Origin: an uncultured Bifidobacteriaceae bacterium | Lineage (GTDB): Bacteria; Acidobacteriota; Vicinamibacteria; Vicinamibacterales; UBA2999 | NCBI GenBank assembly: GCA_964442845.1 | Contig: CAYUAX010000027.1 | Span: forward strand, 1 to 24,000 | Reading direction: 5' to 3' | Length of the DNA: 24,000 bases | Part shown: positions 5,394 to 21,720 of the stretch, in pieces | Position numbering within the stretch: the first letter of the stretch is position 1 | How the letters are laid out: the number at the start of each line of letters is the position of its first letter | Translations under genes and position numbers: made by a program | Notes under the pieces: model-generated | The model's input: the letters and a program-made list of their open reading frames with translations, nothing else | Told to the model about the DNA's origin: nothing | The model's database searches: none

Positions 5394-7805
5394 ATGCGTT
5401 TCACCGGGCTCATCGCCGACCTTCGCTTCGCCCTGCGGCTCGTCCGCGCCGACTGGCGCTTCTCGGCCACGCTGGTCGCCACGCTCGCCATCGGCATCGC
5501 CGCCAGCGGCGCGCTGTTCAACGTGGTGAACGCCACGCTGCTCCGGCCGCTGCCGATTCCCGACGAGGCCCGCGTGTATCGCCTGCAGGACTACACCGTG
5601 GGTCGCGACGGCGGCCAGGTGCGGCGCTCGAACCGCGTGCTCAACTTCCTCGACATCCGGACCGAGGCGCGCGCGTTCACGCAGATCGTCGGCATGCGCA
5701 GCCTGTCGTGGTCGCTCATCGACGGGTCGACACCGGTGCCGGTCGACGTGGGGCTGGTGTCGCCCGGATCGTTCGAGCTGCTCGGCGTGCGGGCGGCACT
5801 GGGGCGGCTGTTCACGGCCGAGGAGGAGCAGCGCGGGCTGGACGGCGGCGTCGTCGTGATCAGCCACGCGCTGTGGCAGCGCCAGTTCGGTGGGCGGCCC
5901 GATGTCGTGGGCCGCACCGTGCGGGTGGAGGACCACACGCCCACCGTGGTCGGCGTGCTGCCGGCAGGGTTCCGCTTCCCCTACGACGTCGAGGCGTGGA
6001 TGCCCGAGCGCGTCGACCCGCGCATCGAGGCGTCGCTGGCGGTGTTCGCGCGGCTGGCGCCCGAGGCGTCGCCGGCGCAGGCGCAGGCCGAACTCGACGC
6101 GATCGCCGTGCGGGCCGAGGCGGTGCGGCCGGTGGTCAATCGCGGCGTGCGCTTCGCGATGACGCCGATCCGCGAATCGCTGGTGGGCGCCAACGCGCGC
6201 ACGTCGCTGGCGCTGATGGGCGCGGCGGTGCTGTTGCTGGTGCTGGCCTCGGCCAATGTCGCCAACCTGCTGCTGGCGCGGGGGGTGCGGCTGGCCAAGG
6301 AGATCGCGGTGCGGGCGGCGTTGGGTGCCGAACGTGGCCGCCAGGTGCGGCAGATGCTGGTGGAGAGCGTGGTGTTCGCGGCGTTCGGCACGGCCGTGGG
6401 CCTGGCGGCGGCACATCCGCTGAGCCGGCTGCTCGTGGGGCTGGTGCCGAACACGTTGCGCGATCAACTCGGGCTCACCGACACCACGGTGGACATGCGC
6501 GCGGCGCTGTTCGCGGCGGCGATCACCGCGGGCGTGGGCGTGCTGGCGGGGCTGGTGCCGGCTTTGCGGCTGGCGCGCGCCGACGTGAGCGATACGCTGC
6601 GTCAGCATTCCCGGGGCGTGTCGAGCGGGCATCGCCTGATGCGGGGACTGGTCGTCGGCGAAGTGGCGCTGGCCGTGGTGCTGCTGGTGAGCGCCGGCCT
6701 GATGGTGGAGAACCTGCAGCGGCTGCTCGCCGCCAACCTCGGCCTGCGCGCCGACGCGCTCTATGCCGTGGCCCTGCCGCTGCCGCCGCGCTACGCCGAG
6801 GCCGACCAGCGCATCCAGGTGGTGCGGCAGCTGCACGAGGCCGCGCGGGCCATCCCCGGCGTGGAGCGGGCCGGGCTGTCGACGTGGAACCCGCTGGATC
6901 GCGGCAGCTTCGGCGCGTCGCTGGAGGCGGAGGATCATCGCCTCGAGCCGGGCCAGAGCGGCATCATCGTCAATCACCGGCAGGTGACGCCGGAGTGGTT
7001 CGAGACGGCCGGCGTGGCGCTGCTGCGCGGGCGCACGTTCACCGCCGCGGATGCCGCGGGCGCGCAGCCGGTGGCCATCGTCAGCCGGCGGCTGGCCGAG
7101 CGGCTGTGGCCGGGCGAAGACGCGCTGGGCAAGCGGCTGCGTCAGGCGCGTCCGGAGAATCCGTGGATCACGGTGGTCGGCGTGGTCGGCGACGTGCGCG
7201 ACTACGGCGAGTGGCCCGAGACGTGGTACGTGCCGTACGAGCAGCACGGCGGCACGCTGGCGGCCGGCACCGTGCACCTGATGGTGCGATCGCAGGTGGA
7301 TGCCGGGGCGGTCGTCGCGGCGCTGCGCGCGGCGAGTGCGTCGATCGATCCGCTGCTGCCGGTGCCGGATGCGGTGGTGATGACCACGATGTGGCAGGAG
7401 GCGCAGACGCCGCAGCGCATGGGCGCGCTGGTGGCGACGCTGTTCGGCGCGAGCGGGCTGCTGCTGGCCGCGCTCGGCACCTACGGCGTGCTGGCGTATC
7501 TGGTGTCGGCGCGAGCGCGGGAGTTCGGCATCCGCCAGGCGCTGGGGGCGCGTCCGCGGGACGTGGTGGCGATGGTGCTGCGCGACGGCGCCGCGCTGGC
7601 GGCCCTCGGGCTGGCGGTGGGCGGCGTGCTGAGCGTGGGCGCGGTGCAGGCGCTGCGCGGCGTGACCACCGAGGTGGCGGGCGTGCCGGCGGCGCTGCCG
7701 TGGCTGGTGGGCGCGGCGCTGGCGGGAGCTGCCCTCGTCGCGTCGTGGGTGCCGGCGCGCCGGGCCACACGCGTCCAGCCCGTCGAGGTCATGCGCAGCG
7801 AGTAA
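5394..7805 (+). CDS. Duplicated MacB/FtsX-type ABC transporter permease (ADOP-like, no adjacent ATPase)
   Basis: ATG at 5394 preceded by a purine-rich stretch (GTAGGGG). N-terminus MRFTGLIADLRFALRLVRADWRFSATLVATLAIGIAASGALFNVV. There are two FtsX-like 4-TM halves, each preceded by a periplasmic MacB-like domain. C-terminal ARRATRVQPVEVMRSE is typical for the family. Confidence 0.85.
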   Translation: MRFTGLIADLRFALRLVRADWRFSATLVATLAIGIAASGALFNVVNATLLRPLPIPDEARVYRLQDYTVGRDGGQVRRSNRVLNFLDIRTEARAFTQIVGMRSLSWSLIDGSTPVPVDVGLVSPGSFELLGVRAALGRLFTAEEEQRGLDGGVVVISHALWQRQFGGRPDVVGRTVRVEDHTPTVVGVLPAGFRFPYDVEAWMPERVDPRIEASLAVFARLAPEASPAQAQAELDAIAVRAEAVRPVVNRGVRFAMTPIRESLVGANARTSLALMGAAVLLLVLASANVANLLLARGVRLAKEIAVRAALGAERGRQVRQMLVESVVFAAFGTAVGLAAAHPLSRLLVGLVPNTLRDQLGLTDTTVDMRAALFAAAITAGVGVLAGLVPALRLARADVSDTLRQHSRGVSSGHRLMRGLVVGEVALAVVLLVSAGLMVENLQRLLAANLGLRADALYAVALPLPPRYAEADQRIQVVRQLHEAARAIPGVERAGLSTWNPLDRGSFGASLEAEDHRLEPGQSGIIVNHRQVTPEWFETAGVALLRGRTFTAADAAGAQPVAIVSRRLAERLWPGEDALGKRLRQARPENPWITVVGVVGDVRDYGEWPETWYVPYEQHGGTLAAGTVHLMVRSQVDAGAVVAALRAASASIDPLLPVPDAVVMTTMWQEAQTPQRMGALVATLFGASGLLLAALGTYGVLAYLVSARAREFGIRQALGARPRDVVAMVLRDGAALAALGLAVGGVLSVGAVQALRGVTTEVAGVPAALPWLVGAALAGAALVASWVPARRATRVQPVEVMRSE

Positions 7806-7806
7806 A

Positions 7807-7859
7807 TGTAATCGGCTCTGAGCCAGTGGCTCAGAGTCAGTGACTCAGAGCTGATTACA
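7807..7859. repeat. Intergenic modular palindromic element, copy A: left arm TGTAATCGGCTCT, then 14-bp units GAGCCAGTGGCTCA and GAGTCAGTGACTCA, then right arm GAGCTGATTACA
   Basis: The outer 16-bp arms (7807-7822 and 7844-7859) are reverse complements with 1 mismatch. An inner perfect 9-bp hairpin pairs CTCTGAGCC (7816-7824) with GGCTCAGAG (7828-7836). The element lies between convergent stops at 7805 and 7872. Related copies are at 12011-12056 and 21652-21720. Confidence 0.8.
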
Positions 7860-7871
7860 ATTACGGATTCG

Positions 7872-8789: not shown

Positions 8790-8998
8790 CGCCGTTGCCT
8801 CTCCGCTTCGATGCTCGCGCATCCCCTCCCGTTCGCCAAGCCGGTGGGGCCCGATCGCCGTCACCCTGGGACGAATGGCCCGCCGGGTGAGGGAGCGGCG
8901 GCGCCGACGGCGCCTTGTGCTACAAGGTCCCGGGCGGTCCTCGTCCACCGGCTCCCCCGCCGTGGACCCCCGTGCGCCTTCCCCCAGGAGGACCGTCC

Positions 8999-10093
8999 AT
9001 GGCCAAGTCCCGCACCCGTCGCGCCACGTCGCGCGCCGTCCCCGTGTCCCGTCGGCGCACCGCGAAGGCGAAGTCCGCCGCACCCGGCACCGGCCCCGTC
9101 ACGCTGAAGCAGGCGCGCGCCCTGGCCAGGCTGGCCGTGCCGCTGCCCAAAGGCGGCAAGGCCGCGCTGGTGCCGGCATCGCCGGCCAGTGTCGGCGTCG
9201 AGCGGCGCAAGCTCGCGCTCAAACAGGAGCAGGAGAAGCGGCGGCGCATCAAGGAGTACCGCGCCACGATGGCGATCATGAAGAAGCGCGGCGTGAAGGG
9301 CCTGGCGCCCACGCGAAAGCGAGGAGCGCCGGCGCCCAAGGCCCCGCCCAAGCCCTTGCAGGTGTTCGCCGAGGGCGACTCGTGGTTCGACTACCCGGTG
9401 CCGTTCTTCGGCGGCGGCGTGATCCCGCGGCTCGAAGACAAGCTCGGCGTGCCGATCCTCAACCTGGCCAAGGCCGGCGACGAAGTGCGCTACATGCTGG
9501 GCGTGAAGGAGCGCAAAGAGCTGATCACCCAGTTCACCAACGGCTGCCCGGCCGGCGGGCCCTGGGACGTGCTGCTGTTCTCGGGCGGCGGCAACGACAT
9601 CGTCGACAACCCGATGGCGCTGTGGATTCGCGACTTCAACGCCACGCTGCCGCCCGCGGCGCTGGTGCACCAGGGCCGCTTCGACGCCGCGCTGGCGCTG
9701 GTGCGAGCCGGCTACGAGGATCTGATCGGCCTGCGCGATCGGCTGAGTCCGCAGACGCACCTCGTGTTCCACGGCTACGACTTCGCCATTCCCGACGGCC
9801 GCGGCATCTGCCACCTGGGGCCGTGGCTGAAGCCCACCTTCGATCTGCGCGGCTTCCCCTCGCAGGCGGCGGCGTTCGCGGTGACGAAGATCCTGCTGCA
9901 GCAGTTCGCGGCGATGCTGGCGTCACTCGAGGCGGCGCATCAGCAGGTGACCTTCCTCAACGGGCAAGGCACGCTGGCGGCGACGGCCGGCGCGTGGCAC
10001 AACGAGCTGCACCCGTCGAAGGACGGCTTCAAGACCTTCGCGTCGCTCTTCCACCAGAAGCTGAAGGCGCTGTTCCCGACGAAGGTGCCGTAG
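8999..10093 (+). CDS. SGNH/GDSL-family hydrolase with a 119-aa polybasic N-terminal extension; no signal peptide
   Basis: Strong RBS AGGAGG (8986-8991) 7 nt before ATG 8999. SGNH blocks: I FAEGDSWFDYP, II NLAKAGDEV, III FSGGGNDIV, V WHNELHPSKDGF (an N sits where the block-V Asp is usual). Residues 1-119 contain 34 K/R against 4 E and 0 D. Confidence 0.75.
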   Translation: MAKSRTRRATSRAVPVSRRRTAKAKSAAPGTGPVTLKQARALARLAVPLPKGGKAALVPASPASVGVERRKLALKQEQEKRRRIKEYRATMAIMKKRGVKGLAPTRKRGAPAPKAPPKPLQVFAEGDSWFDYPVPFFGGGVIPRLEDKLGVPILNLAKAGDEVRYMLGVKERKELITQFTNGCPAGGPWDVLLFSGGGNDIVDNPMALWIRDFNATLPPAALVHQGRFDAALALVRAGYEDLIGLRDRLSPQTHLVFHGYDFAIPDGRGICHLGPWLKPTFDLRGFPSQAAAFAVTKILLQQFAAMLASLEAAHQQVTFLNGQGTLAATAGAWHNELHPSKDGFKTFASLFHQKLKALFPTKVP

Positions 10094-10337
10094 CGCGCGA
10101 CCGGTCGGACGCGGGCGCCAGCGCCTTGGCGATGAACAGGCGATCGCGGCGGAGGCCGTCGACGACGACCTCCTGTCCGGCCATGTCCTCGAGCACCGCG
10201 TCGCGCATCGGCGGCCCGTCGTAACGGCGCAGCTGCAGCCGCTCGCCGTCGGCCGTGACGAGGAACGCCTGGTGCCGGCGCGCGCTCTTCGACGTGCCGC
10301 CGAAGGGTCCGATCTCGATTCGCCCCTGGAGGCGCAT
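10029..10337 (-). CDS. Small hypothetical protein (about 75-aa core plus low-complexity tail) encoded 30 nt downstream of the protease-like gene
   Basis: About 93% GC3 over the first 75 codons (MRLQGRIEIGPFGG...GQEVVVDGLRRDRLFIAKALAP). GC3 drops in the last ~25 codons, which overlap the convergent SGNH gene. No recognisable family and no strong SD. Confidence 0.5.
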   Translation of the reverse strand: MRLQGRIEIGPFGGTSKSARRHQAFLVTADGERLQLRRYDGPPMRDAVLEDMAGQEVVVDGLRRDRLFIAKALAPASDRSRATAPSSGTAPSASGGRATRRS

Positions 10338-10367
10338 TCCGTGATTGTATGCCCCGTCCGGCAGCGA

Positions 10368-11909
10368 CTACCGGCTCTCGACGATGCGCGTCACCACCTC
10401 GCCGTTCACCTGATAGGCCAGCAGGCCCTCGATACGCGGCGGCGGCGCGGCCGGACCGCGGGCCGCGGTCTTGCGCCGCTTCGTGGCCACGAACACCAGC
10501 TGCGCCTTCGGCATGGCCTTCAGCGCCTTGCCCATCACCTGCCTGGCCGCCGCCGGCTCGTGCACCTGGAACGCGCGCATGTGGGTGAAGCGGCGCCGCG
10601 CCGCCGCCAGCGCCTTGCGACGCATGGCCGCCGCCGCCTTCTGCGGCGACTTGGCTGGCACGGTGTAGGCGGTCTCGCGCGCCAGCCGCTCGCCCGCTTT
10701 CATCAGCCGCACCCGCCGCTGCAGCCGCGCCGCATGCGCCGCCGACTTGGCCTGCGGCGAGGCGCCGGAGCGGGGCGTCGCATCGGCCGCGAACGGATGG
10801 ATCGACGGGTCGCCGAGCAGCACGAACTGCGCCAGCGTCTTCTCGTCGTAGGGATCGACCACGCTCTGCTGCCGCACGTAGGCAAGCCGCGCCTCGAGCA
10901 GCGCCCGCCCCAGCGACGCGCCCTTGAGCAGCTGCTCCAGGAAGAGCTGGCAGACGATGTCGGCGTTGGCGTTGTCGTCGGCCGGCCCGTAGGCGATGGT
11001 CGTGGCGGCCACGATGCCGACGGCGCCCTTGGCCAGATAGGCGTTGGCGATGCTCATGGCCGGCAGCCCCTGCGGGTCGTAGAGCTCGGCGCCGTAGCAG
11101 CACTCGAAGGCGGCCACGGTGCCCGCCGACACGCCGGTGAGTTTGCGCGCGTCCATCGCCGTGGCGTAGACGTCCTTGGGGAACTCGCCGCTGAAGGTGT
11201 GGTCGGCCTCGTTGCCGTGGCAGTTGACGAAGTGCACCTTCTGGCGCAGCTGCGCGGCCGTGAAGGTCGGCCCGGCCGTGGGCGACGTGAGCACGACCGG
11301 CACGGCGCCGAGGAGGTTGCGCACGCTCATCTTGGTGGACTTCACCCACACCTTGGCCGTCAGCGCGAAGCACGAGTCGGGCCGCGGCTGCGGCGTGGCG
11401 GCGGCGCTCGCCTTCAGTTGCGCGAGCAGATAGGCCGGCGTCGCCGCGCCGGTCAGGTCGGGGATGCGGCCGACGACACGGGTCGGGCCGAGGAACTTCG
11501 TCGTCACCTGGCTGTACGGCGCCTCACAGGCGTACGGCAGGTCGCTGCCGGCGAAGCGATCCGGGTCGGAGTCGGGGTCGGCCGGGTCGTGCAGCTTGTT
11601 CTTCAGGTCCTGGTACGGGACGACGTCGTGCGAGCCGAGAATCACCAGGTACTCGGGCCGGTGCTTCTTGACCACCGCGTCCACGGCGGCCTTGTTCTCG
11701 GCCGGATCGGCGGGGTCGATGACGCGCGCGGCGCCGAGCGGCGACGCGTCGAGGTAGAGGAGCCGGGTGGCCAGACCGCGCCGGGCATCGGCCGTGGCCA
11801 GCGTCTTCACGCCCTGCTCGATGGCGGTCAGGCCGCGGCTGCCGTACTTGGCCAACAGGGCCCCGCGGTTGGTCACGAGGAGCTTGCTCGAGAGCGATCT
11901 GGTCGCCAT
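10368..11909 (-). CDS. Gingipain-like (peptidase C25-type, clan CD) protease homolog, cytoplasmic (no signal peptide), with a basic C-terminal extension
   Basis: 513 aa. GGAGGGG RBS 5 nt before the ATG. C25-like landmarks in order: KLLVTN, YLVILGSHDVVPYQ, SDLPYA...PTRVVGRIPD, VHFVNCHGNE (His231-Gly), AAFECCYGAELYD (Cys270/271) and FVLLGDPSI. Residues 373-513 are Ala/Arg/Lys-rich. Confidence 0.65.
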   Translation of the reverse strand: MATRSLSSKLLVTNRGALLAKYGSRGLTAIEQGVKTLATADARRGLATRLLYLDASPLGAARVIDPADPAENKAAVDAVVKKHRPEYLVILGSHDVVPYQDLKNKLHDPADPDSDPDRFAGSDLPYACEAPYSQVTTKFLGPTRVVGRIPDLTGAATPAYLLAQLKASAAATPQPRPDSCFALTAKVWVKSTKMSVRNLLGAVPVVLTSPTAGPTFTAAQLRQKVHFVNCHGNEADHTFSGEFPKDVYATAMDARKLTGVSAGTVAAFECCYGAELYDPQGLPAMSIANAYLAKGAVGIVAATTIAYGPADDNANADIVCQLFLEQLLKGASLGRALLEARLAYVRQQSVVDPYDEKTLAQFVLLGDPSIHPFAADATPRSGASPQAKSAAHAARLQRRVRLMKAGERLARETAYTVPAKSPQKAAAAMRRKALAAARRRFTHMRAFQVHEPAAARQVMGKALKAMPKAQLVFVATKRRKTAARGPAAPPPRIEGLLAYQVNGEVVTRIVESR

Positions 11910-12010
11910 GGACCCCTCCGCGCGGGACGGGGGAGCACCCGGACCCGCGTCACGGACTATCGCTCAGGTAGCGTCGCCGGGCGTCGAGCGACCTCAATAC
12001 GGCGTGCAGC

Positions 12011-12056
12011 TCCGAGTCATCGACTCCGAGTCGATGACTCAGAGCCGATGACAAAT
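12011..12056. repeat. Intergenic modular palindromic element, copy B: units GAGTCATCGACTCC and GAGTCGATGACTCA, then right arm GAGCCGATGACA
   Basis: 14-bp periodic GAGTC-N3-GACTC units at 12014-12041. The right arm at 12042-12053 matches copy A's right arm 10/12. It sits between the stop of the ATP-grasp gene (12069) and the promoter region of the protease-like gene. Confidence 0.7.
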
Positions 12057-12068
12057 GGTGCAGATTCT

Positions 12069-13604
12069 TCAACTTGAGACCGGCATCGACGGCTGCGTGC
12101 GCCAGTACTCCAGGGTCAACCTCGCTACCCGTCGCAGGTCGAGCGGCGCGGCGCCGCGGGCGCGGTTGGCGGCGCCGATCTCGAACACCAGCTGCCACTG
12201 ACGCGACAGGGTCCGCCACGCCCGCCAGGCGCCGTACGCCGGGTCGTAGATGTTGGTCGATTCCGAGGTGACGCCGTTCAGCTCGACGATCGTCAGGTCC
12301 TCGCCGCGCCGGAACCCCTCGACGCGCCGGTACCGCACGTCGAACCGGCCGATGTAGAAGCCCGGCACCGCCCGGGCAATCTCGTCGATGCGCGCCGACA
12401 GCGCCGGCGTGACGAGCTCCGCGCCATCGAGGAACACGGCGCCCTGGCAGTGGTTGCCCGACGTCACCAGCGCCAGCCGTTCGCCGTCGCCGAGCACGCG
12501 CGCGCCGTCGTGACGCTCCAGGAACAACGGCACCTGCAGCCGGTAGCGCGGATGCTCCCAGAGCAGCGCCTCTACCGTGGCCACGCCGTCGCCCGTCAGC
12601 ACCGGGAAGCGCTTGTCGGTCACGCTGAAGATGTGGCCGCGCGTCTCGCCGGGCCGCCGGTAATAGAAGACGCCGGCCTCGAACGGCCCTGGATGCCACG
12701 GCTGCACGATCACCGGGCCGCGCTCGCGCGCCAGGTACGCGACTGCTTCGTCGCGCGAGGCGATGCGTCGCACGCCGACGCCTTTCTGGCCGACGTCGGG
12801 CTTGAGGATGAGCGGATAGGTCCAGCCGCCATCGGCCACGGCGGCATCGAACGCGCGCAGCCGGACGATCGGCTCGGCCGCCGCCACCAGCGCCGAGGGC
12901 GCCGTCCACCGCGACGGCAGCGCCTGCAGGATGGCGAACTTCGACTCGCCGACGAAGCCGCCGTCTTCGAATCCCGGATTGGCAGCGCCGATGGTCCCGA
13001 CGCCGCCGTGCCGTATCGCCAACCAGAGCAGCCACGGGCCAAGCGGGCCGTAGACCATCCACGACGGCCAGAACTCGGGCCGCAGCCAGCGATCGATGCG
13101 GGCGGTCGCCACCCGCCACACCCGACGCCCGCGGTCGGTGCGCGACGCACGGAGCAGCGCCAGCAGCAGCACCCCGCCGACCAGCAGTTCGGAGGTCCCC
13201 AGCACGATCAGCGGCGTCCACAGCGTGACCGCCAGCGCGGTCCAGGCGAAGAACGCCCGCGGCCGCGTGCCGAACACCCCGGCGGCCAGGTACAACGGCA
13301 GGCGCGTGCCGGGCAGAAAGCGGCTGGCGACGAGGGCGGTCGGTTCGTCCACGGCCAGCACCAGTGCGCGGCCCAGCACGCGCGGCATCCGCTGCACGCA
13401 CCAGCGGTGCAGGCGTTCGCTGCAGGCCAGCCCGCGTCCGGCCAGCCACAGCCCGACATCGCCCAGGTAGATGCCGGCGCCGCACGCGATCAGCGCCTGG
13501 CTCACCGTGAGCTCGCCCGAGCGGACGAGCCATCCGGCCCAGAGCGCCGCGGCGTCCTCCGACACGAAGGTGCCCAGCACGATCCAGAACGCCGTCGCGG
13601 TCAT
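12069..13604 (-). CDS. Fusion protein: N-terminal DedA/VTT (SNARE-associated) membrane domain plus C-terminal ATP-grasp carboxylate-amine ligase-like domain
   Basis: Start at ATG 13604, overlapping the upstream stop (ATGA). DedA motifs: FVSEDAAALWAGWL, GIYLGDVGLWLAGRG, ASRFLPGTRLPLYLAAGV. ATP-grasp-like body: YPLILKPDVGQKGVGVRRI, VIVQPW, FPVLTGDGVATVEALL, GNHCQGAVFLDG, GRFDVRY, IVELNGVTSESTNIYDP. Confidence 0.75.
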   Translation of the reverse strand: MTATAFWIVLGTFVSEDAAALWAGWLVRSGELTVSQALIACGAGIYLGDVGLWLAGRGLACSERLHRWCVQRMPRVLGRALVLAVDEPTALVASRFLPGTRLPLYLAAGVFGTRPRAFFAWTALAVTLWTPLIVLGTSELLVGGVLLLALLRASRTDRGRRVWRVATARIDRWLRPEFWPSWMVYGPLGPWLLWLAIRHGGVGTIGAANPGFEDGGFVGESKFAILQALPSRWTAPSALVAAAEPIVRLRAFDAAVADGGWTYPLILKPDVGQKGVGVRRIASRDEAVAYLARERGPVIVQPWHPGPFEAGVFYYRRPGETRGHIFSVTDKRFPVLTGDGVATVEALLWEHPRYRLQVPLFLERHDGARVLGDGERLALVTSGNHCQGAVFLDGAELVTPALSARIDEIARAVPGFYIGRFDVRYRRVEGFRRGEDLTIVELNGVTSESTNIYDPAYGAWRAWRTLSRQWQLVFEIGAANRARGAAPLDLRRVARLTLEYWRTQPSMPVSS

Positions 13605-14377
13605 GAGGCCGCCTTCGCCGCCCACCCCGAGTTGGCTTCGGCGCCCAAGGCCAGCGCGACCAGCGCCGCGCCGCGCCGCTCGATCGACAGCCACGCCGGC
13701 TGCCCGATCCCGTCGCGCATCGACTCGTAGCGCATGCGCACCCGGCTCGGCGTGACGTCCACGGTGGTGACGCTCTGCGTGGCCCAGTCGTGCCGCCGCA
13801 TGTGCACGCTGAGGTGCGGACGGTCGGGCCAGCGATGCCGATGGAACGCGTCCTGGCCGTCGAGGGGATCGACGGCGCCGGTCACCAGCGTGTCGAACAG
13901 GGCGCGGCGCGCCGGCTCGGCCTCGGTGTCACCCGGCGGCACCGCGGTGAAGCCCACCGGCCCACGCATCGGATAGGTGTCCATGCTCAGCCCGCCGGGC
14001 CGCACGCGCAGCTCGAGCGTCTTCGTGCCGTCGCTCGCCAGCAGCCGATGCGGCGGCCAGCCGCGCCAGGTGAGCGCCTGCGCGCGCGCCACCACCTGCC
14101 GCAGGTCGGCGCAGTCGAGCATCTCCAGGATGAGACGGCTGCGACTGGGCGCCGTGGACGACACCTCGCCGTGCCCGTTCAACAGCGCGAACACCAGACC
14201 CGCCGACGTGGCGGCGATCCACGTGCCGCCGCCCTGCGGGTCGATCGGCAGCAGCGCCAGCGCGCCGCCGGCGCGGGTGATGAGCGGCGGGTGCGCGGCG
14301 GGCCGGTCGTGGCGCTCGTCGCGGTTGGCCATCACCCGCAGGTGATCGCCCATCGGCAGGAACGTGACGGTGCACAT
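13601..14377 (-). CDS. NRDE-family protein (TANGO2-like, Ntn-hydrolase-like with N-terminal Cys)
   Basis: MCTVTFLPMGDHLRVMANRDERHDRP carries both the Met-Cys start and the eponymous NRDE motif. There is 1 nt between the upstream stop and this ATG. Confidence 0.8.
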   Translation of the reverse strand: MCTVTFLPMGDHLRVMANRDERHDRPAAHPPLITRAGGALALLPIDPQGGGTWIAATSAGLVFALLNGHGEVSSTAPSRSRLILEMLDCADLRQVVARAQALTWRGWPPHRLLASDGTKTLELRVRPGGLSMDTYPMRGPVGFTAVPPGDTEAEPARRALFDTLVTGAVDPLDGQDAFHRHRWPDRPHLSVHMRRHDWATQSVTTVDVTPSRVRMRYESMRDGIGQPAWLSIERRGAALVALALGAEANSGWAAKAAS

Positions 14378-21651: not shown

Positions 21652-21720
21652 TGTAATCTGCTCTGAGTCACTGACTCGAAGTCACCGACTCAGAGTCACT
21701 GACTCGGAGTCGGCCGGGGC
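21652..21720. repeat. Intergenic modular palindromic element, copy C: left arm TGTAATCTGCTCT, then 14-bp units GAGTCACTGACTCG, AAGTCACCGACTCA, GAGTCACTGACTCG and a partial GAGTCGGCC
   Basis: The left arm matches copy A 12/13. There are three full 14-bp units at 21665-21706 plus a partial unit running into a GC-rich imperfect hairpin (GTCGGCC..GGCCCGAC). It lies between convergent stops at 21646 and 21726. Confidence 0.8.

Follow-up and report, generated by a model that had tools for sequence, protein, structure and literature searches.

Gasdermin-protease operons are compact units in which an effector gene is accompanied by a protease gene, and the proteases belong to several classes (10.1101/2021.06.07.447441; PMC8851545). 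Among the bacterial gasdermin genes, 43 of 50 adjoin protease genes; the partners include CHAT and C14 proteases in bacteria and subtilases in fungi, and neither "C25" nor "gingipain" is found as a gasdermin partner in that report (0 occurrences) (10.1101/2021.06.07.447441). A comparable arrangement around a different effector is present in the 24,000-nucleotide (nt) stretch of contig CAYUAX010000027.1 (GenBank assembly GCA_964442845.1) analysed here in its full length as the window, which has a G+C content of about 71% and whose nearest relatives are Vicinamibacterales (Acidobacteriota). It encodes a cytoplasmic clan-CD cysteine protease of the C25 (gingipain) type, a small protein directly downstream of it and, convergent to both, an SGNH/GDSL-type hydrolase (Table 1). 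Neighbourhood analysis revealed that the C25 protease and the small protein form an obligate, horizontally spread two-gene unit, and that the SGNH family is an independently mobile, protease-associated enzyme. Similar to the gasdermin operons, the SGNH cassettes are compact, combine one effector with proteases of several classes and include CHAT and subtilase S8 among the partners. The two differ in that the effector of the cassettes is an SGNH hydrolase, not a pore former, and in the candidate regulatory region, which is a 120-amino acid (aa) basic N-terminal region in the SGNH protein and a short C-terminal peptide in gasdermins.

The neighbourhood of the SGNH gene was analysed in 84 loci (four look-ups and 80 metagenome loci); 44 of these were informative, the other 40 lying on contigs too short on one or both sides. 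An adjacent protease gene was found in 34 of the 44 informative loci, and at least three unrelated catalytic classes were represented. The partner was the C25 protease plus small protein in 15 loci, a subtilisin of family S8 (PF00082, 170 bits), usually followed by a conserved 86-aa protein, in nine, a fused astacin-CHAT protease (PF12770, 122 bits) in eight, and the N-terminal part of an S41 protease cassette in two. The CHAT gene overlapped the start of the SGNH gene by about 16–19 nt in most loci (one locus being reversed and one having the opposite strand), the S8 gene in most loci began about 12–25 nt after the SGNH gene, and the C25, small-protein and SGNH genes were spaced by tens of nucleotides. 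This spacing looks operonic, and the cassettes were bounded by genes on the opposite strand. The N-terminal region of the SGNH protein was the same with every type of partner. The conserved protein behind S8 (83–86 aa; loci L080, L084, L086, L087 and L091) showed no Pfam match even at E = 5, and hence no assignment as an I9-type propeptide or inhibitor could be made; the S8-plus-86-aa layout parallels the C25 unit, in which a protease is likewise followed by a small partner. In L080 (6100-9830), the series continues with a gene for a basic 82-aa protein and with an S41 protease cassette.

Seen from the protease, 79 related loci with 10-kb flanks were analysed, 75 of which had room for the small open reading frame (ORF). 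The small ORF was present directly downstream of the protease gene and on the same strand in 74 of these 75 loci, and in most of them the gap was -4 to +30 nt. The SGNH gene was the sole other recurrent neighbour; it adjoined the C25 pair in 16 of the 79 loci (~20%), which spanned Acidobacteriota, Planctomycetota, Verrucomicrobiota, Leptospirales and Alpha-, Beta- and Gammaproteobacteria. Three gene orders were observed. The SGNH gene is convergent in the window and in L001, L002, L005 and L092, with a 3' overlap of identical length (65 nt) in all five; it is co-directional and downstream of the small gene in, for example, L036, L041, L060 (Bradyrhizobium) and L074; and it is co-directional and upstream of the protease gene in L026, L031, L061 and L078. 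The SGNH proteins of the last order belong to a second subfamily, only about 30% identical, which also carries a basic N-terminus. The Bradyrhizobium SGNH protein is about 60% identical to that of the window, and a complete cassette is available in a cultured strain, Bradyrhizobium sp. BWA-3-5 (L060, NZ_CP136626.1). The remaining neighbours shared by the protease loci reflect synteny among close relatives, and this applies likewise to the NTF2-like gene next to the window cassette. The initial annotation had proposed a module of all three genes: the lack of conserved co-localisation, which it had named as refuting, did not apply, and the association of protease and small ORF stood; the SGNH gene proved to be an optional member, so that the locus does not represent an obligate three-gene module.

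Relatives of the protease were found in about 447 species-representative genomes, distributed over Acidobacteriota, Nitrospira, Verrucomicrobiota, Planctomycetota and several proteobacterial classes, including cultured Bradyrhizobium and Rhizobium. Ten copies were located on plasmids, all of them from Alphaproteobacteria and mostly on large rhizobial replicons. On two Rhizobium plasmids (L164, NZ_CP121657.1, 1-8000; L165, NZ_CP104153.1, 780-11254), the C25-plus-small pair lies beside radical SAM and ferritin-like genes, in one locus together with DyP-type peroxidase and peroxidase genes and in the second with a tryptophan halogenase gene. As these surroundings are confined to one lineage, they may indicate that the pair has another role there, or a further one. 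The pair was also seen in L020 and L035, whose bins carry the label Nitrososphaeraceae (archaea) and whose proteases are 40–44% identical to that of the window; this represents either inter-domain transfer or contamination of the bins. In L003 (11830-12908) and L048 (11931-12807), the SGNH gene beside an intact small gene is split into several frames, which may reflect pseudogenes or faulty assembly.

Close relatives of the window illustrated the exchange of such cassettes at a single site. In L083 (3784-10981), the window's flanking NTF2-like gene (78% identity) and glycoside-hydrolase gene are retained, and the SGNH gene is accompanied by a 57-aa gene, an S41 gene, an S8 gene and an 86-aa gene in place of the small protein and the C25 protease. 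In L006 (9863-12890), a close relative in which the flanking NTF2-like and glycoside-hydrolase genes are also kept, the C25 protease and small protein are present and the SGNH gene is missing. Directly after the SGNH gene of L081, a 50-aa ORF (6058-6210) joins the N-terminus of an S8 protease to the C-terminus of the 86-aa partner, which looks like the deletion scar of an S8 cassette. The site thus looks like a variable spot with exchangeable cassettes in these close relatives.

The three genes of the window lie where the initial annotation had placed them, and the 30-nt gap between protease and small ORF and the convergent overlap of the small ORF with the SGNH gene were confirmed on the coordinates (Table 1). 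The SGNH ORF opens mechanically at position 8915; its start was set at the ATG at which all homologues begin (MAK...). The proposed lack of secretion signals also held, as an N-terminal hydrophobic stretch was absent in all three proteins; the neighbouring NTF2-like/DUF4440 protein possesses a signal-like hydrophobic N-terminus. No regulatory RNA, promoter or terminator above chance was found in a search around the three genes.

Table 1. Coordinates of the cassette and of its principal features in the window
Feature	Position	Strand	Remarks
C25/gingipain-fold clan-CD cysteine protease	10368..11909	(-)	513 aa, no signal peptide
Codon of predicted catalytic His231 of the protease	11217..11219	(-)	motif NCHG; invariant in 24/24 diverse homologues; codon checked
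Codons of Cys270-Cys271 of the protease	11097..11102	(-)	motif ECC; both invariant (24/24), one the predicted nucleophile; codons checked
C-terminal region of the protease, aa 376-513	10371..10784	(-)	variable linker, long helix, small alpha/beta domain
Small partner protein, OB-like beta-barrel, DUF5818-related	10029..10337	(-)	102 aa, conserved core about 75 aa
Convergent 3'-end overlap of small ORF and SGNH gene	10029..10093	(.)	65 nt
SGNH/GDSL-type hydrolase	8999..10093	(+)	364 aa, no signal peptide
N-terminal extension of the SGNH protein, aa 1-122	8999..9364	(+)	conserved in 23/23 aligned homologues

The assignment of the protease to clan CD, with a C25-like fold, was upheld by sequence and by structure. 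Residues 220-370 matched Pfam Peptidase_C25 (PF01364) with 44.9 bits (cut-off 23; E = 1.2e-11), and at least 1386 homologues were found, the full-length ones among the matches listed all carrying PF01364. An AlphaFold2 model built from 24 diverse homologues reached a predicted template-modelling score (pTM) of 0.89, and Foldseek placed the gingipains RgpB (4ief, 1cvr) and Kgp (4rbm) as the best matches in the PDB (E = 3.5e-12 to 3.6e-11); SAVED-CHAT, separase and caspases ranked next. No significant PDB match was obtained with the sequence profile of either the protease or the SGNH protein. The order of His231-Gly232 and Cys270/Cys271, the latter placed 39–40 residues further on, is the conserved clan-CD order with the spacing of these enzymes; from its sequence, with the invariant His/Cys dyad intact, the protease looks catalytically competent. 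An SD..Y motif and a His-Gly followed by Cys about 40 residues on are features shared with the gingipain sequences. The name "GNAT superfamily N-acetyltransferase" carried in the source by some homologues (P0022, P0035, P0051 and P0055) is at odds with their assignment to C25 by Pfam and seems to be an error of annotation.

The gingipains of Porphyromonas gingivalis (MEROPS C25, clan CD) share with the window protease the two-subdomain alpha/beta catalytic fold. However, they possess a signal peptide, an N-terminal pro-domain, an immunoglobulin-like domain and a C-terminal sorting domain (as cargo of the type IX secretion system), all four of which are lacking in the window protease; its fold starts at residue 7, with strand 1 as the N-terminus. 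The Pfam search showed no domain besides C25 and no recognisable C-terminal sorting domain, and the long protease ORFs of L047, L056, L079 and P0041, checked for domain fusions, contained the C25 domain alone. What distinguishes the window protease is its obligate small partner gene and a conserved C-terminal region of its own, predicted by AlphaFold2 as a long helix (residues 385-412), carrying the invariant residues R395, R398, R399 (RxxRR) and G406, followed by strands and helices of a small alpha/beta domain, with mean predicted local distance difference test (pLDDT) values of about 56–93 in blocks of 10 residues. The segment that had been described as a tail is thus a predicted folded region conserved throughout the family, not a loose tail. 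A relationship between this C-terminal domain and the small protein was considered and rejected (hhalign probability 0.4%).

The small protein was modelled by AlphaFold2 as a five-stranded barrel resembling the oligonucleotide/oligosaccharide-binding (OB) fold, with a mean pLDDT of 75.8. Fold matches were weak (IF1, the cold-shock protein CspA and SilF, E about 0.02). DUF5818 (PF19135) was matched by 20 of 54 family members (best E = 6.5e-6), and the window protein itself scored 12.7 bits (E = 0.099) against a cut-off of 27; a literature search on DUF5818 found nothing. Only G5, K17, S18, L36 and D46 were invariant across the 54 sequences. Lys17 and Ser18 lie within the motif GSKSE[RH] of the beta1-beta2 loop, where the confidence of the barrel model is lowest. 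The 25-aa C-terminal extension of the window protein is confined to genes that overlap an SGNH gene, homologues elsewhere being devoid of it; as it corresponds to an antisense reading of the conserved SGNH C-terminus, its conservation is uninformative on function. The genetic layout is similar to that of the staphopain-staphostatin, SpeB-Spi and PopC-PopD pairs, in that the gene directly behind that of the protease codes for a small, beta-rich protein of the cytoplasm that always accompanies it. The small protein of the window, a candidate inhibitor, is a 5–6-stranded OB-like barrel related to DUF5818. Staphostatins fold as an 8-stranded barrel unlike the OB-like small protein, and to our knowledge the small protein bears no sequence similarity to inhibitors of the staphostatin, Spi or PopD type.

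The SGNH fold of the hydrolase was supported by the motifs GDS128WF and GGN199D, which are invariant, and by N335ELH338P in block V. Pfam Lipase_GDSL_2 (PF13472) is present on many homologues (precomputed), and the distant C25-linked subfamily clears its cut-off (44.6 and 41.2 bits); the window protein itself remained below it, with 27 bits against 32.9. Block V at 10001-10018 of the window reads NELHP, in which the usual Asp of the catalytic triad (DxxH) is replaced by an Asn invariant in 23 of 23 aligned homologues. The block V His is present, and Ser, Asn and His are thereby all in place; SGNH enzymes with a Ser-His dyad exist. The N-terminal extension begins with a variable polybasic start, followed by GPVTLxQARALA, a conserved, helix-like stretch (VGxERRKL...RRIxEYKATLAIMKKRG) and a variable basic/Pro/Ala linker that leads to PLQVFAEGDSWF and the catalytic domain. 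The region of ~120 aa is a conserved family feature that goes beyond low-complexity sequence. Its profile retrieved 86 matches among 1.84 billion representative proteins, and all of the 16 sequences that were read belonged to this SGNH family, as full members or as fragments.

The initial annotation had further described Arg/Lys/Ala-rich extensions on both large proteins and visibly similar segments within them. The composition was as described: the C-terminal 138 aa of the protease contain 14% R, 7% K and 23% A, and the N-terminal 122 aa of the SGNH protein 15% R, 13% K and 18% A, compared with 4–5% R and 5% K in the protein cores. The similarity, which the annotation had itself tied to a score above composition-matched shuffles, was refuted, as the Smith-Waterman score of 48 equals the mean of 2000 such shuffles (48.6 +/- 8.3, p = 0.50). 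The particular segment pairs that had been singled out gave p = 0.23 and 0.035. The similarity of the two tails was rejected also by hhalign of the family profiles (probability 0.2%, 6 columns).

It is very probable that the three genes are functionally linked. The occurrence of one SGNH family beside interchangeable, unrelated proteases, as with gasdermins, speaks indirectly for a relationship of protease and effector and is explained most simply if the SGNH protein is a substrate of the protease, and the proposal that the link consists in proteolytic processing of the SGNH protein is evenly balanced. The cut by the adjacent protease would fall within the flexible basic linker of the SGNH protein or close to it, at about aa 100-120. 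Gingipain-type enzymes cut after Arg or Lys. Such a cut would detach the catalytic domain from the conserved N-terminal region and might thereby switch the activity or the location of the hydrolase, presumably as activation rather than inactivation. The small protein probably binds the protease through its invariant Lys-Ser loop and would act as a regulator, pseudo-substrate or bait. Together, the proteins would constitute a protease-to-effector relay in the style of the gasdermin-protease operons. The SGNH enzyme would probably act on a lipid or another esterified component of the cell, and the probable setting is a response to stress or conflict. That the cassette is a conflict or cell-death system is possible, though doubtful. 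As a tentative extension, the SGNH family might be a proteolytically gated suicide or stress effector, i.e., a counterpart of gasdermins that forms no pores and is armed by whichever protease cassette is at hand; the C25-plus-small unit would then be a new sensor-protease module, in which the OB-like protein serves as a bait or inhibitor that frees the protease upon a trigger, for example an infection.

The logic of a protease combined with a dormant effector is already known. The novelty lies in the components, in that the C25 protease is cytoplasmic, its partner resembles DUF5818 and the SGNH hydrolase carries a dedicated N-terminal region, and also in the exchange of protease classes around an effector that is an enzyme. 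If the proposed relay is true, the rule that a protease arms a dormant effector would extend beyond the pore-forming gasdermins and take in an enzyme whose probable targets are lipids or other esters, one effector family would be wired to four unrelated protease classes, and a first function would be obtained for a widespread, unstudied cytoplasmic branch of the gingipains and its constant DUF5818-like companion. The idea is directly testable, as the cassettes comprise just two or three genes and one of them is present in a cultured strain.

Several observations weigh against such a relay. The loci sampled were those most similar to the window and are phylogenetically non-independent. About 80% of the C25-plus-small loci are without an adjacent SGNH gene, and the protease must therefore have other targets or another role; conversely, 10 of the 44 informative SGNH loci, all with full flanks, have no adjacent protease, and their number is larger if loci with one flank are counted. 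No partner-specific cleavage motif was seen in the linker of the SGNH protein. That the N-terminal region serves other effectors as an exchangeable adaptor was unsupported, there being no other effector domain among the 16 sequences read from the profile search. Matches to PADLOC models were absent (0) for the protease, the small protein and the SGNH hydrolase, the 120 nearest flanking ORFs of the C25 pair showed mainly housekeeping Pfam domains without defence enrichment, and no phage-borne copy of the protease was found.

The main rival explanation is joint catabolism, in which the protease, with the small partner as its chaperone or inhibitor, and the SGNH esterase would act on one cytoplasmic substrate that contains both kinds of bond, ester and peptide (e.g., a polymer or a peptide with acyl or lipid groups), and lineages would differ in the class of protease used for the peptidase step. 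It would amount to a modest improvement in annotation. The mostly metabolic or housekeeping nature of the nearest neighbours of the C25 pair, with no defence enrichment, would suit it, as would the radical SAM, ferritin-like and peroxidase genes beside the pair on the Rhizobium plasmids and the many C25 pairs lacking an SGNH gene together with the SGNH genes lacking a protease. We nevertheless regard it as rather unlikely. Genes for a transporter, a regulator or additional enzymes of a pathway are absent from the cassettes, and the conserved, family-specific basic N-terminal region of 120 aa is left unexplained. The rare and patchy distribution across phyla, with about 60% identity between the acidobacterial and Bradyrhizobium SGNH proteins, fits mobile accessory cassettes better, and the swapping of four mechanistically unrelated proteases is typical of a requirement for any protease that cuts the partner rather than of one defined catabolic reaction. 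A second rival, which seems distinctly unlikely, is that only the protease and the small protein belong together, as effector and inhibitor in a toxin-antitoxin-like pair with the SGNH gene as a passenger. Precedents are available in staphopain-staphostatin and PopC-PopD, and the tight spacing of the two genes in 74 of 75 loci, the invariant Lys-Ser in an exposed, low-confidence loop and the lack of an SGNH gene in 80% of the loci are all in agreement with it. Hitch-hiking is, however, hard to reconcile with an SGNH-C25 adjacency seen repeatedly, in three gene orders and for two SGNH subfamilies that are divergent, and with the independent pairing of the SGNH family with CHAT, S8 and S41 proteases.

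Export of the two enzymes for degradation in the manner of classical gingipains, in the service of nutrition or virulence, was also considered, as the C25 and SGNH families include many secreted enzymes and the adjacent NTF2-like protein has a signal peptide. This is very unlikely: none of the three proteins has a signal-like N-terminus and that of the protease is already strand 1 of the fold, the gingipain pro-domain and a recognisable sorting domain are absent, and the NTF2-like gene is syntenic in close relatives only. Least probable is that the three genes are unrelated chance neighbours with basic tails of merely compositional origin. The chance-level similarity of the tails and a genome of 71% G+C, which favours Arg/Ala/Pro-rich sequence, would be expected in that case, but both tails are conserved family features, and the explanation is contradicted by a co-localisation far beyond chance (74/75 for the small protein, 16/79 for a rare SGNH family and 34/44 for SGNH with a protease).

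Clan-CD proteases of bacterial immunity, i.e., Craspase TPR-CHAT/Csx29, SAVED-CHAT and the caspase-like protease of TIR-based type IV Thoeris (10.1101/2024.10.24.620036), have the caspase-hemoglobinase fold in common with the window protease. They are cytoplasmic and act on demand; the window module differs in that no CRISPR, SAVED, TIR or NTPase sensor is encoded near it. Enrichment near defence islands, which had been suggested as a check, was not observed around the module, and PADLOC matches among the 120 nearest neighbours were few (e.g., three subtilases and one MotB/ZorB-like protein). CapV, the patatin-like phospholipase of the cyclic-oligonucleotide-based anti-phage signalling system (CBASS), is a lipid-hydrolase suicide effector triggered by a cyclic nucleotide. 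The SGNH hydrolase resembles CapV as a possible terminal effector that is cytoplasmic and of the esterase/lipase type, and differs from it in its SGNH fold and in its presumed trigger, proteolysis. No description of the composition C25, DUF5818-like protein and SGNH was found in PADLOC or in the searchable literature; literature searches for Peptidase_C25 with phage and for SGNH with anti-phage and protease yielded nothing, and no mention of SGNH, lipase or gingipain was found in an eLife 2020 paper on conflict systems.

Copies of a 14-bp repeat had been described as bracketing the module in the initial annotation. Such units do lie on both sides, at 7807-7860 and 12007-12054, but the element occurs a third time at 21660-21710, and the bracketing is not specific to the module. 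The three intergenic sites of the window contain 14 matches to palindromic tandem units of the GAGTCAGTGACTCA type, against 0.17 expected, and the repeat is a dispersed element resembling repetitive extragenic palindromes (REP-like), not a specific border of the module. Upstream of the protease gene, a VTT/DedA membrane domain fused to an ATP-grasp-like domain is encoded at 12069-13694 (-) and a 258-aa protein at 13601-14377 (-). Both genes are conserved in the closest relatives only and are probably unrelated to the module.

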